Part shown: piece by piece, positions 1-2,782 of the stretch
How positions within the stretch are numbered: position 1 is the first letter of the stretch
Layout of the letters: each line of letters begins with the position of its first letter
From: Naegleria gruberi
Lineage: Eukaryota
NCBI GenBank assembly: GCA_000004985.1
Contig: GG739244.1
Length of the DNA stretch: 2,782 nt
Direction: 5' to 3' (one strand)
Translations under genes and position numbers: made by a program
Notes under the pieces: generated by a model
What the model was told of the DNA's origin: nothing
Databases searched by the model: none
The model's input: only the letters and a program-made list of their open reading frames with translations

Positions 1-237
1 ATCAAAATTTATAGAGCTGTCAAAAAGGTTAATTTTGTTGATGAGATGGGTTGTGTATATCAGGCAGATCTGAAAGTGGATGTTTCGTCCATGAGTATTG
101 GAGATATATTTAGAGTGAGATTGTCTTTGAGTGCTGCTAATGCTTTGAGAGTGGATGTTATACCAACAGATGCAACAAAGCAAGTAACAACCACTGTCAC
201 CTTTATGACTCACATGGCTGTCAATCATTTCGAATAA
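1..237 (+). CDS. 3' end of a protein-coding gene of unknown function (C-terminal 78 aa, TAA stop at 235-237). The frame is open to the left window edge, so the gene is 5'-partial. Translation: IKIYRAVKKVNFVDEMGCVYQADLKVDVSSMSIGDIFRVRLSLSAANALRVDVIPTDATKQVTTTVTFMTHMAVNHFE*
   Basis: Frame 1 is open from base 1 to the stop at 235-237. The track ORF 46..237 is just the first internal Met. Codon usage (aga, ttg, gct, caa, cca) matches the other two genes. No - strand ORF covers this region. I do not recognise a domain. Confidence 0.5.
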   Translation: MKIYRAVKKVNFVDEMGCVYQADLKVDVSSMSIGDIFRVRLSLSAANALRVDVIPTDATKQVTTTVTFMTHMAVNHFE

Positions 238-239
238 CC

Positions 240-245
240 TTTATT
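240..245 (-). promoter_or_regulatory. AATAAA hexamer overlapping the stop codon of the 291-aa gene (TAATAAAGG on the - strand). Candidate 3' end signal.
   Basis: Plus-strand TTTATT at 240-245. It sits exactly between the two convergent stop codons. Confidence 0.25.
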
Positions 246-1119
246 AGAAATATTTAGAATAAATGCTATCGACTATTACTCTATTGGCAGCCATTATTCC
301 TGGGCAGATACACTCCATTCCTGCTTTAGACGAACCCCACTCCATTCTAATCTTTGGAATTCGTGACTGTTCACATAAATCACTAATTCTTTGACAATTC
401 TTCAAAATTTCAAAGAATTTGTCTTTGTAAACTTTGTTTTCTATTAATAATTTGTAGCAGTTTGGTAAACGTTTCATAATTGAGGAGTTAAACTTATCCC
501 ATGCCATGCTAATTTGCTGTCTTTCATCAACAGGTTCTAATTTGTAAACAGATTTTGATAGGAGAGAAATGAATAGTTCAGATTCGGAATCATTCTCATT
601 TGGAATAATCTCAAGCATGTAATTAAAAATCATATCTTGATTTCTGGCAGATAAGTTAGTAATCTCATTAAGGATTAGTTCAGTTTTTGAATCAGTAACT
701 TCCATTGATTCTCTATTTCTGAAAGAGGCCAGTTCCAATTCTAACTTTCGAATAAGTTCATCACTCTTGTTCTGCTTCTCTTCAAGCTCTCTGATTCTTC
801 CCAACAGATCAACTTTTTCTTGTCTCAAAGTTTCGTTTTCAGAAAGAAGTTTCTCTTCAGCAATGGAATTCCTTCTCTTTTCCCTGTCTACAGTTTCTAC
901 GAATAAGTCTGATGTGCTAGCTTTAGTTTGCAATGTTTTTCTGTTATTTTGACTGATTGTATTCTCACAATTACTTGCTCCACTCACCATCTTATTAACT
1001 CTTGAGGAATTATTCGACATTTTGCAGTTTGTATCACCAAATCTATTCAGGCTACTGTTACTATTCTTTGAAGTGGTAGTGGATGTGGTTGTTAAAGATC
1101 TGCTATTGCTTATTGGCAT
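244..1119 (-). CDS. 291-aa protein. It has a Ser/Thr/Asn-rich low-complexity N-terminus (aa 7-70), a central leucine-heptad coiled coil (aa ~78-136) and a C-terminal ~150-aa region of unknown function containing Cys residues. Function unknown.
   Basis: Complete ORF with ATG at 1117-1119 and TAA at 244-246. There is an A-rich context before the ATG (caaaaaaATG on the - strand). The coiled coil shows as REKRRNSIAEEKLLSENETLRQEKVDLLGRIRELEEKQNKSDELIRKLELELASFRNRE with Leu at a 7-residue spacing (L91, L98, L105, L112). Codon usage is consistent with the neighbouring genes. Confidence 0.75.
   Translation of the reverse strand: MPISNSRSLTTTSTTTSKNSNSSLNRFGDTNCKMSNNSSRVNKMVSGASNCENTISQNNRKTLQTKASTSDLFVETVDREKRRNSIAEEKLLSENETLRQEKVDLLGRIRELEEKQNKSDELIRKLELELASFRNRESMEVTDSKTELILNEITNLSARNQDMIFNYMLEIIPNENDSESELFISLLSKSVYKLEPVDERQQISMAWDKFNSSIMKRLPNCYKLLIENKVYKDKFFEILKNCQRISDLCEQSRIPKIRMEWGSSKAGMECICPGIMAANRVIVDSIYSKYF
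258..263 (+). promoter_or_regulatory. AATAAA hexamer 21 nt downstream of the + gene stop codon. Candidate polyadenylation-type 3' end signal.
   Basis: Read directly from the sequence: TAAcctttattagaaatatttagAATAAAtg. Chance occurrence in AT-rich DNA is plausible. Confidence 0.25.
712..888 (-). other. Predicted coiled coil (~59 aa) with a four-heptad leucine repeat in the 291-aa protein.
   Basis: The charged/hydrophobic heptad periodicity is visible in the translation. Leu occurs at residues 91, 98, 105 and 112, followed by LIRKLELELASF. Confidence 0.6.
910..1101 (-). other. Ser/Thr/Asn-rich low-complexity N-terminal region of the 291-aa protein (SRSLTTTSTTTSKNSNSSLNRF...NNSSRVN...).
   Basis: Compositional bias is visible in the translation. 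This is typical of eukaryotic disordered regions and a possible O-glycosylation or phosphorylation substrate. Confidence 0.6.
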
Positions 1120-1179: not shown

Positions 1180-2782
1180 TTAGTTTGCAACTGGGTGATT
1201 AGCAATTTCTTGATAGATTCCAGCTAAACTAGCAGAATCGTTTGCTCTCTTGAATTGACCTCTTCCTGTAGCTGCCATTTGTCTGAGACCAGTATTATCT
1301 GATGATCCACCAAGTTGAATTGTATGAAGAATAATATCATGAGATGAAACTAGTTGACCAGTAATACTAACGGCCTCATCTGCTGAATCTTCACCATCAG
1401 ACATGAATAAGACAACAATTTTGTATGATTGATGGTTTGGATAAGTAGACGAAATTAAAGACGAAACTGATTGCATGGCATTGGTAAAGCTTGTTCCACC
1501 ACCAGCAACGTAGGATGACATGGTGCTGACTAAACTTGTGGAAAGAGGATTTGTAGTGAAGCAATTATATGCAGAATGATCATACATGATACAAGAAACA
1601 AGATCACTTGATCCATCTCTAACCTCTAAGAACTTTTCACAAGATTCGAATAATGCTCCAAGTCTGTCATTACTGTACTTTGAGGAAGTTGGTCTTGCAT
1701 CTGATCCTCCCATTGATCCTGACTTGTCATTGACAAAGATAAAGTGAAAAACTTCTGAAGAAATTTGTGGACCAGGTGGAGGTGCATTATTAATCAAATG
1801 TCTTTCAAAGTCAACTGATGCCTTAAAACTCTTTTTAGAAGTCAAGTCAATGGCATGTATTTCAATAGCACTTTTACCAAAGAACATTTCAACTTGAACA
1901 ATTCTGTCCATGCCTCTTGTTCCCTTCATGTCAATAAGAATCTCACCACATTTCTTTACGAAACTTTCAGTGACAAATCTTGTGTTTGGAATTGGTGACA
2001 GGTACAATTCCAAAATCATTGATTCTTGACTCTCACTGGTTACACCATATTCTCTCACAACAACCTGATCATATCTAACTTCATCATTCACATCAACATA
2101 AATGTCAAAGCAATCTTTACAATATGGCTCATTTCTTCCTTTGAGTTTAATCTTTTTCTTTTCATCATGAACATTGGGAATGAATTTCTTGTAAGAGGTC
2201 ACTCCATAACTTCTTCTCATTCTTCTGGTAACGATTAAGGATGGATCTCTTCCAAGCATGACAGCTCCCTTTACAATAGCTCCACCAGGGCTTGGAGGAA
2301 CCACAACTTTACAAATTGGACTTTGGAACTTTTGAGTTAGTCTACTTTGTAGTACCTTTGATTCACCAAAACCACCCACTACAAATATATAGTTGAACTC
2401 CCTACTGGAATCGTTAAAATTATCTCTCATTTGAATTAGTTCTTTTTGGACATGACTTTCAATTTCAGTGAGAACGCCTTCGAATATTTTATCTAGACAA
2501 TTGGTGGTAAGAATGATTCTTCCAAGTCTGAAATGAGTCTTGACTAGTTGATTGGTCAAATCTGCATGAGTGGTAAAGAATTCTTTAAGAAGGCCATCAA
2601 TTTGAATAAACTGTTGAGTAGAGATGTTTTCAATGCTAACTTTCTTCTTCTCCCACAAACTCATCAATTCTTCAAATTGAGCTGGTTTGCTAATTTTCAA
2701 TTCGTGCATAAAATCTTGACCAAATATATCTGACATTACTTGAATAAACTTGGCATCTAAATAGGAAGAACCACATGCACCA
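1180..2782 (-). CDS. Atypical Hsp70/actin-fold ATPase of the HSPA12 type, fused to a C-terminal von Willebrand factor A (vWA) domain with an intact MIDAS motif. The gene is 5'-partial. The N-terminal part of the ATPase domain lies beyond the right window edge. Stop codon TAA at 1180-1182.
   Basis: The track ORF 1180..2736 starts at an internal Met. The same frame stays open through 2737-2781 (GACGSSYLDAKFIQV upstream of that Met) with matching codon usage. Only ~116 aa precede the adenosine motif, too few for a whole ATPase domain. The adenosine motif is IFVVGGFGESKVLQ (cf. Hsp70 VLVGGSTRIPKVQ and HSPA12 GGFAES). The connect-2 segment is PGGAIVKGAVMLG (cf. Hsp70 DEAVAYGAAVQA). HSPA12-like distal blocks are RRMRRSYGV, VKKCGEILIDMKGTRG and AIEIHAIDLTSKKSFKASVDF, recalled from memory of the family. 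A linker NNAPPPGPQ follows. The vWA domain has beta1 FHFIFVNDKSGSMGG (DxSxS), GGGTSFTNAM (MIDAS Thr) and IVVLFMSDGEDS (MIDAS Asp). Confidence 0.85.
   Translation of the reverse strand, partial: GACGSSYLDAKFIQVMSDIFGQDFMHELKISKPAQFEELMSLWEKKKVSIENISTQQFIQIDGLLKEFFTTHADLTNQLVKTHFRLGRIILTTNCLDKIFEGVLTEIESHVQKELIQMRDNFNDSSREFNYIFVVGGFGESKVLQSRLTQKFQSPICKVVVPPSPGGAIVKGAVMLGRDPSLIVTRRMRRSYGVTSYKKFIPNVHDEKKKIKLKGRNEPYCKDCFDIYVDVNDEVRYDQVVVREYGVTSESQESMILELYLSPIPNTRFVTESFVKKCGEILIDMKGTRGMDRIVQVEMFFGKSAIEIHAIDLTSKKSFKASVDFERHLINNAPPPGPQISSEVFHFIFVNDKSGSMGGSDARPTSSKYSNDRLGALFESCEKFLEVRDGSSDLVSCIMYDHSAYNCFTTNPLSTSLVSTMSSYVAGGGTSFTNAMQSVSSLISSTYPNHQSYKIVVLFMSDGEDSADEAVSITGQLVSSHDIILHTIQLGGSSDNTGLRQMAATGRGQFKRANDSASLAGIYQEIANHPVAN
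1207..1749 (-). other. von Willebrand factor A (vWA) domain with a complete metal-ion-dependent adhesion site (MIDAS: D337-x-S339-x-S341 ... T415 ... D447).
   Basis: DKSGS is encoded at nt 1714-1728 (checked codon by codon: gac aag tca gga tca). GGGTSF and MSDGED lie at the positions expected for the MIDAS Thr and Asp. The hydrophobic beta-strand patterns FHFIFV, IVVLFM and IILHTI alternate as in a Rossmann-like vWA fold. Confidence 0.85.
1801..2782 (-). other. HSPA12-like Hsp70/actin-superfamily ATPase region. This is the C-terminal part of the nucleotide-binding fold plus the family-specific distal segment (aa up to ~312 of the visible ORF).
   Basis: The adenosine motif VVGGFGES is encoded at nt 2359-2388. 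Connect-2 follows about 30 aa later. The blocks RRMRRSYGV, VKKCG..GTRG and AIDLTSKKS resemble vertebrate HSPA12A/B as I remember them. Confidence 0.7.

Follow-up and report, generated by a model that had tools for sequence, protein, structure and literature searches.

What does an Hsp70-type ATPase gain from carrying a von Willebrand factor A (vWA) domain at its C-terminus? The question is raised by a 2,782-bp stretch of DNA from Naegleria gruberi, which represents one entire small scaffold (contig GG739244.1) and which we refer to as the window. On its minus strand, the window encodes what we identify from sequence motifs and fold comparison as the distal half of an Hsp70 of the HSPA12 type, continuing in the same chain into a vWA domain with a metal-ion-dependent adhesion site (MIDAS). 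Read from 2781 to 1183, this frame translates without any stop across all modules, yielding 533 residues, and runs into the scaffold end. Over this stretch, the remaining two frames are broken by 29 and 56 stops, indicating that the open frame is not due to chance in DNA of 35% GC. Because the scaffold ends at position 2782, approximately 280 N-terminal codons, including those for the phosphate-1 and phosphate-2 motifs, are absent. The NCBI entry "predicted protein [Naegleria gruberi]" (P0001, 518 aa) is 100% identical to the window product. Owing to the scaffold end, its model begins at an internal methionine, Met16 (MSDIFGQ; nucleotides 2716-2736, minus strand, first nucleotide 2736), and the database entry therefore displays only the vWA domain, with the Hsp70 half hidden.

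Domain composition and maintenance of the fusion gene

The N-terminal part of the fragment is assigned to a distal Hsp70 nucleotide-binding domain (NBD) followed by a lidless substrate-binding beta domain (SBD-beta), both of the HSPA12 type (Table 1). An earlier note, made from the DNA letters alone, had singled out the adenosine motif VVGGFGES and the connect-2 segment PPSPGGAIVKGAV as signs of the actin/Hsp70 fold. Both are present in the translated frame where the note had placed them, and they fall in the columns VGGFxxS and P..AVV.GA, which are conserved among at least 25 relatives bearing the Pfam HSP70 domain (PF00012). The same is true of the three blocks that the note attributed to the HSPA12 branch, RRMRRSYGV, VKKCGEILIDMKGTRG and AIEIHAIDLTSKKSFKASVDF, all of which are found in the SBD-beta; in our alignment, the patterns RRMRxxYG, GxIxIxM and FGxxEI..A are common to the fusion and to relatives named HSPA12. 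The first residues of the SBD-beta, (S)LIVTRR, sit where the interdomain linker would be.

The profile searches that the note had proposed gave a divided answer. Both vWA models, PF00092 and VWA_2, matched the 533-aa fragment above threshold, whereas PF00012 yielded no match at E<=1 when the fragment was searched alone, a miss that is expected because the distal half of the HSPA12-type NBD is divergent. The Hsp70 assignment is instead based on the orthologues, which match PF00012, on PF00012-bearing relatives, which match the fragment (E 6e-39), and on the agreement of the fold comparison. Indeed, the top PDB match of a structure model of the full-length orthologue P0002 (predicted local distance difference test [pLDDT], 88.4; predicted template modelling score [pTM], 0.70) is ATP-bound open DnaK (4b9q, E 1.8e-27). 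An NCBIfam scan returned only weak DnaK/HscA and CLCA-type vWA matches. No alpha-helical lid (SBD-alpha) follows the SBD-beta in the structure model, where residues 605-624 of P0002 form one 4-residue helix and a disordered linker; a lidless state has likewise been reported for HspA12 (PMC13580251).

The part of the protein that lies beyond the scaffold can be read in two orthologues. P0002 (814 aa, 79% identical) is encoded on a 33-kb contig (L001) of a public sequencing run, and P0003 from Willaertia magna has 786 aa (49% identical by BLASTP, 52% in a MAFFT alignment). Both match PF00012 and PF00092 in the same layout, and both carry phosphate-1 (AVDFGTSRSG), the catalytic EPEAAA and phosphate-2 (DAGGGTVD). 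Thus, the two phosphate motifs that the note suggested recovering from flanking sequence do exist in the orthologues, their counterparts in the N. gruberi gene falling outside the window. DFGTS, EPEAAA, DxGGGTxD and VGGFxxS are kept in nearly all full-length fusion relatives. By inspection, the N-termini of the orthologues have no obvious hydrophobic signal sequence, and the fusion protein is therefore probably cytosolic.

Downstream of the SBD-beta lies the Pro-rich linker, with NNAPPPGPQ embedded in ERHLINNAPPPGPQISSE. Its equivalent in the full-length model, residues 608-622, is the sole internal segment with pLDDT <50, and the linker is the least conserved stretch among orthologues. The rest of the chain is a vWA domain with a complete MIDAS, for which metal binding is predicted. 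The score of Pfam VWA (PF00092), 34.0 bits over aa 348-524 (E 4.5e-8), exceeds the cut-off of 23.8, and that of VWA_2, 30.7 bits, is likewise above its curated threshold. When aligned by phmmer to the vWA domain of CLCA1, whose structure is solved, the fragment has GGT and DGED in register, and fold comparison yields TFIIH Ssl1, Rpn10 and Sec23/24-like ArnB as structural neighbours. Pfam, the CLCA1 alignment and the fold agree with the earlier call of a vWA domain with every MIDAS residue, and DxSxS/GGT/SDGE is kept in almost all fusion proteins. Just past DxSxS, at aa 357-372 (nucleotides 1666-1713, minus strand), vWA domains of the fusion type also share a further conserved segment, M-x-x-x-D-x-x-P ... 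N-R-(L/V)-G-A-L, which is missing from the nearest stand-alone vWA proteins (P0019-P0023) and might form a loop near the MIDAS.

Could a fusion seen on an orphan 2.8-kb scaffold nevertheless stem from mis-assembly, contamination or read-through of two adjacent genes, or represent a pseudogene in decay? Arguing for this are the very small size of the scaffold, the interruption of the gene at its end and the shortening of the public model to an internal methionine. However, the frame is unbroken through the junction, and the 33-kb contig, which belongs to another Naegleria-like genome, matches the window with 78% identity at the DNA level and agrees with it in both the junction and the gene downstream. 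The ratio of nonsynonymous to synonymous substitution rates (dN/dS), calculated by the Nei-Gojobori method for the window gene and P0002, amounts to 0.205 in the NBD part, 0.135 in the SBD-beta, 0.134 in the linker and 0.164 in the vWA domain. All three modules are thus under purifying selection, and every part, linker included, falls within 0.13-0.21. The same architecture is also found in transcriptomes and genomes of other genera. The fusion is real and maintained; the notion of an artefact or pseudogene is effectively refuted by the junction and downstream gene of L001 together with the dN/dS values, and we consider it scarcely credible.

Table 1. Features of the 2,782-bp N. gruberi window; residue numbers refer to the 533-residue translation.
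Feature	Position	Strand	Residues (aa)	Remarks
Fusion coding sequence fragment	1183..2781	-	533 codons	5' end cut at scaffold end 2782
Stop codon TAA	1180..1182	-		
Distal Hsp70 NBD	2236..2781	-	1-182	subdomain IIB helices and C-terminal part of IIA
Adenosine motif VVGGFGES	2359-2382	-	134-141	
Connect-2 PPSPGGAIVKGAV	2260-2298	-	162-174	
Hsp70 SBD-beta	1807..2235	-	183-325	
Block RRMRRSYGV	2200-2226	-		HSPA12-type, in SBD-beta
Block VKKCGEILIDMKGTRG	1912-1959	-		HSPA12-type, in SBD-beta
Block AIEIHAIDLTSKKSFKASVDF	1807-1869	-		HSPA12-type, in SBD-beta
Flexible linker ERHLINNAPPPGPQISSE	1753..1806	-	326-343	18 residues
Pro-rich linker core NNAPPPGPQ	1765-1791	-		
vWA domain	1183..1752	-	344-533	190 aa
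MIDAS D352-K-S354-G-S356	1714-1728	-	352-356	DxSxS
MIDAS T430	1492-1494	-	430	within GGGTSF
MIDAS D462	1396-1398	-	462	within SDGED
Open reading frame	244..1119	-	291 aa	Ser/Asn-rich N-terminus, coiled-coil-like middle
C-terminal end of a gene cut by left scaffold end	1-237	+	78 aa	SBD-beta profile match

Spread of the fusion and relatives lacking the vWA domain

How widespread is this architecture? We searched 1.84 billion cluster representatives exhaustively by HMMER with a profile spanning SBD-beta, linker and vWA; this produced 2139 matches, with about 12 clusters at 50% identity covering both parts. When our own SBD-beta and vWA profiles were run over 283 fetched proteins, SBD-beta was followed directly by vWA in 28. 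N. gruberi itself encodes a second, 782-aa paralogue with the fusion (XP_002679444.1 / D2V8K0), named "chaperone protein". The fusion is further present in the heteroloboseans Naegleria fowleri and Willaertia (Pfam and cluster look-ups), in the amoebozoans Flabellula baltica and Arcella intermedia (transcriptome-derived open reading frames; UniRef "VWFA domain-containing protein"), in two proteins of Anaeramoeba flamelloides (automatic name "alpha kinase/elongation factor 2 kinase") and in environmental eukaryotes. As far as seen, it constitutes a small family restricted to amoeboid protists, and an actin gene lies beside the fusion locus, which is eukaryotic. The fusion may be absent from prokaryotes: a pattern-limited scan of prokaryotic genomes with the SBD-beta and vWA profile matched 149 patterns, 0 of which were confirmed by tblastn.

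The fusion may have arisen once or several times across Arcella, Anaeramoeba and the others; a neighbour-joining tree of the NBD and SBD-beta, which has long branches and no bootstrap support, does not decide between the two. On a first reading of this tree, fused forms appeared scattered among unfused ones, a picture that was rejected for the main clade. P0045 and P0139, two seemingly unfused members, are two further fusions after removal of short introns: on their contigs, the vWA domain is encoded just downstream, past short GTAAGT...(C)TAAC...TAG introns located immediately before the vWA beta-1 strand.

Tandem pairs of HSPA12-like genes were observed in two environmental eukaryote contigs (L003 3231-7294 and L005 2112-6542; JGI 3300037860 / Logan SRR12689282). 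In each, an HSPA12-like gene lacking a vWA domain (553-568 aa) lies directly upstream of an HSPA12-vWA gene, with 28-31% identity between the two. The gene caller overlooked the vWA part of the second gene because of short GTAAGT...TAG introns located precisely ahead of the vWA beta-1 strand; the N. gruberi gene lacks an intron at this domain junction.

The relatives lacking a vWA domain indicate which Hsp70 branch has been extended. The next-best matches of this kind are 560-620-aa Hsp70-like metagenome proteins and "heat shock 70 kDa protein 12A-like" proteins of the clam Mercenaria (E 1.3e-16 over 61% of the fragment); of the relatives with a name, mollusc HSPA12A-like proteins are the closest to lack the vWA domain. 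A profile of the NBD and SBD ranked first a HSPA12A-like protein of Mya arenaria (781 bits, a score inflated by two Hsp70 stretches) and also retrieved Rhizoctonia "HSPA12A", many fungal "actin-like ATPase domain-containing" proteins, many Anaeramoeba "hsp70 family" paralogues and one cyanobacterial Hsp70-family protein. From these similarities, we assign the fusion protein to the HSPA12-like branch of Hsp70, the placement being made via named mollusc and fungal relatives.

HSPA12A/B and the large invertebrate expansions are recognised Hsp70 derivatives without a known mechanism (PMC13580251). The fusion shares with HSPA12A/B-type Hsp70s the NBD motifs DFGTS/T, FKM, TVPAIW, EPEAAA, DxGGGTxD and VGGFxxS, as well as the lidless SBD-beta with RRMRxxYG and a terminal beta-strand block, the function being unknown in both (PMC13580251). 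The earlier note had stated that HSPA12-type proteins end shortly after the terminal SBD-beta block, and this is borne out by the aligned relatives lacking a vWA domain, Mercenaria HSPA12A-like included, which terminate 0-5 residues past the AIEIH...VDF block. Unlike these proteins, the fusion goes on through a linker into a vWA/MIDAS domain of 190 aa. This continuation past the SBD-beta is what is new about a system that is otherwise of a known kind. The protein represents an elaboration of the HSPA12 family confined to certain lineages and is no chaperone for general housekeeping.

Among the relatives, two other C-terminal extensions were noted. The 847-aa "HSP70" of Acrasis kona (P0179) has a C-terminal tail of ~250 aa that neither our profile nor Pfam recognises as a vWA domain, and a 969-aa HSPA12-like protein of the chytrid Nowakowskiella (P0265) gives a sub-threshold TIR_2 match (E 1e-3). 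Both hint that the C-terminus of HSPA12-like proteins may be a general fusion point. Pfam detected no partner domains in the N-terminally extended HSPA12-like proteins P0071, P0087, P0126, P0128 and P0057 or in the Acrasis protein. A bacterial-looking 12.4-kb ENA metagenome scaffold (L002) carries three HSPA12-like Hsp70 genes (P0005, P0183 and a 547-aa one) interleaved with genes for a 420-aa coiled-coil protein and an FHA/TonB_C protein, with no vWA in the cluster; its Hsp70s are ~30% identical to the Hsp70 half of the window protein and are among the closest relatives lacking a vWA domain.

In the literature on HSPA12, Hsp70, vWA, Naegleria, amoebae and conflict systems, we encountered no account of a fusion between Hsp70 or HSPA12 and a vWA domain, and publications pairing HSPA12 with von Willebrand were endothelial-marker papers only. 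The architecture recurs in several amoeboid protist lineages, with sequences that are public under generic names. It is undescribed rather than unseen.

Known NTPase-vWA systems and possible modes of action

Other couplings of vWA domains to nucleotide-driven engines provide a framework for considering what the fusion might do. In the MoxR-vWA pairs (for example RavA-ViaA, CbbQ-CbbO and NorQ-NorD, as well as the MoxR-vWA ternary conflict systems of Kaur et al. 2020), as in the fusion, an NTP-driven engine is combined with a MIDAS-bearing vWA domain, which probably holds the target, and the logic of an ATPase with a vWA co-chaperone is established in these systems (PMC7159879). The MoxR engine, however, is an AAA+ hexamer, usually encoded separately from its vWA partner in prokaryotic operons, whereas that of the fusion is an actin-fold Hsp70; Pfam and NCBIfam scans of the fragment and the orthologues detected no AAA+ domain. 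Midasin (Rea1) is a eukaryotic intracellular single-chain ATPase in which a C-terminal MIDAS domain on a flexible linker docks onto substrates. It is a dynein-like AAA+ ring of ~5000 aa that functions in ribosome biogenesis, and it is not known to contain an Hsp70 fold or to be related in sequence to the fusion. The resemblance to MoxR-vWA systems and midasin is confined to functional logic.

By this analogy, we propose that the fusion could be a single-chain remodeller, in which an Hsp70-type ATPase, a lidless SBD-beta and a tethered vWA domain cooperate and the MIDAS face catches a partner. Three modules are combined on one chain, probably in the cytosol: an HSPA12-type ATPase, a lidless SBD-beta of canonical fold and a vWA domain with an intact MIDAS, the last attached through the 18-residue flexible Pro-rich tether where an ordinary Hsp70 would begin its lid. 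ATP binding and hydrolysis in the NBD would drive docking and undocking of the Hsp70 type and thereby reposition the beta domain, and Mg2+ or Mn2+ bound by the vWA domain would grip a specific partner protein by one of its acidic side chains. In this way, the vWA domain would serve as a built-in adaptor, either bringing a defined partner to the ATP-driven module or anchoring the module on that partner; alternatively, it might take the place of the lid. The identities and order of the domains, the conserved ATPase and MIDAS residues, purifying selection and the recurrence in several protist lineages are established by the data above. The ATP cycle and the capture of a partner by the MIDAS we infer from the analogous systems, and our confidence in the remodeller proposal, the likeliest of the readings considered, stands midway between acceptance and doubt.

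Several considerations weigh against it. The N. gruberi paralogue P0027 and P0033 carry GGN and thus lack the MIDAS threonine, so that some members may do without MIDAS chemistry. For the window gene, the catalytic motifs of the N-terminus lie off the scaffold and are deduced from orthologues only, and the pTM of the full-length model, only 0.70, leaves the interdomain geometry to prediction. ATPase activity, metal binding and the partner are themselves predictions from sequence, and HSPA12 proteins have no demonstrated foldase cycle (PMC13580251). Furthermore, an adaptor role is indistinguishable from a role of the vWA domain in anchoring or oligomerisation.

This last consideration opens the way to a simpler account, in which the vWA domain serves localisation only, tethering the protein to some fixed structure of the cell, for instance the cytoskeleton, a membrane or the contractile vacuole, or mediating self-association, and the Hsp70 part acts as in HSPA12 proteins lacking a vWA domain, with no client selection. 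Intracellular vWA domains are often stable assembly modules, as exemplified by the structural neighbours TFIIH Ssl1, Rpn10 and Sec23/24-like ArnB, and the long flexible linker suits a tether. In Dictyostelium, vWKa, an alpha-kinase with a vWA domain, is located at contractile vacuoles and the Golgi (PMC2827801), and the Anaeramoeba fusions are auto-annotated after the vWKa family. Nevertheless, the five MIDAS residues are strictly conserved in most members, which points to metal-mediated binding, more typical of regulated and reversible docking. We therefore regard anchoring as the only role of the vWA domain to be unlikely.

A further account follows from the kinship of the vWA domain itself. 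Its nearest relatives outside the fusion family, and the best non-fusion matches of the vWA profile, are the C-termini of giant GBP/URGCP-like proteins, in which the same vWA subtype is located C-terminal to an NTPase. Unlike the fusion, these giants have a GTPase of the dynamin superfamily as engine, and some carry an additional SAM domain at the N-terminus or a protein kinase at the C-terminus. Since the subtype occurs on GBP/URGCP-like GTPases as well, it is a module that protists have joined to different NTPase engines. The giants found here (P0043, P0058, P0061, P0083 and P0086; 1359-2644 aa) are apparently uncharacterised, and their sources include "Eukaryota sp. TZLM3-RCL" and an MMETSP transcript; P0043, from Gefionella okellyi, combines SAM, GTPase and vWA domains, and P0086 has an additional kinase domain.

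Given these relatives, the fusion might be an immune-like or conflict NTPase switch, one of a protist set of NTPase-vWA surveillance proteins, and no folding chaperone, such that binding of a pathogen or danger ligand by the vWA domain or the SBD-beta would trigger a nucleotide-dependent conformational change or oligomerisation. Consistent with this possibility are the many paralogues in Anaeramoeba, the tandem arrangement of paralogues with and without a vWA domain, the lineage-specific expansions of HSPA12-type proteins in bivalves (PMC13580251) and the fusion of HSP70 domains to TRADD-N/Death-type modules in oyster immune expansions (PMC8195603). In addition, bacterial CoCoNuT defence operons combine Hsp70-like NBD/SBD and TerY-type vWA proteins (PMC11090510). 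Unlike in the fusion, however, the components of CoCoNuT type III McrBC systems, among them the Hsp70-like CnuD/CnuCD, are encoded by separate genes in bacterial defence operons, together with a McrB GTPase and HEPN, and the ATPase motifs, which are conserved in the fusion, are degenerate in CnuD/CnuCD (PMC11090510). The argument for a switch is one of guilt by association alone. The fusion contains no effector, Death, TIR or nuclease domain, PADLOC returned 0 matches for the fragment, P0002, P0005 and P0006, and the dN/dS of ~0.17 between the Naegleria orthologues signifies ordinary purifying, not diversifying, selection. An immune-like switch is thus conceivable, although we hold it to be rather doubtful. 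Still less probable, in our judgement, is a broader scenario in which the vWA domain replaces the lid and the fusions, the adjoining paralogues lacking a vWA domain and the GBP-like GTPase-vWA giants together form an unrecognised innate-immunity-like NTPase-vWA surveillance system of amoeboid protists.

Neighbouring genes and implications for the HSPA12 family

Two further genes share the window with the fusion gene (Table 1). The 291-aa open reading frame, which has no significant Pfam match, begins 60 bp downstream of the stop of the fusion gene, and its own stop is 6 bp from that of the convergent gene at the left scaffold end. An orthologue (57% identical, E 3e-101) follows P0002 at L001 8631-9440; because it occupies the same position, the fusion gene and this open reading frame form a conserved gene pair. 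The truncated 78-aa product of the convergent gene matches the HSPA12 SBD-beta profile weakly, across profile positions 90-153 out of 155 (11.7 bits; E 8.8e-6 when searched as a single target). A BLASTP comparison with P0002 was not significant, and the orthologous locus on L001 contains no counterpart. Since the product terminates 8 residues past the last SBD-beta block, it is probably an HSPA12-like paralogue lacking a vWA domain, situated near the fused gene.

Finally, the significance of the fusion depends on which of the above accounts applies. Should the vWA domain be a localisation tag only, the fusion would be a modest addition to the catalogues of protist domain architectures. If the surveillance system were real, it would suggest that HSPA12 proteins of animals function as nucleotide-gated sensors or adaptors, not as foldases. 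With the fusion, Hsp70 joins the short list of NTPase folds, AAA+ and GTPases among them, that are coupled to vWA domains, and it does so in a form that is tractable for experiments in the culturable amoebae Naegleria gruberi and Willaertia. For the HSPA12 family at large, the joining of an ATPase and a MIDAS in one chain provides a "Rosetta-stone" clue, namely, that HSPA12-type engines may act on, or be positioned by, a metal-held partner.

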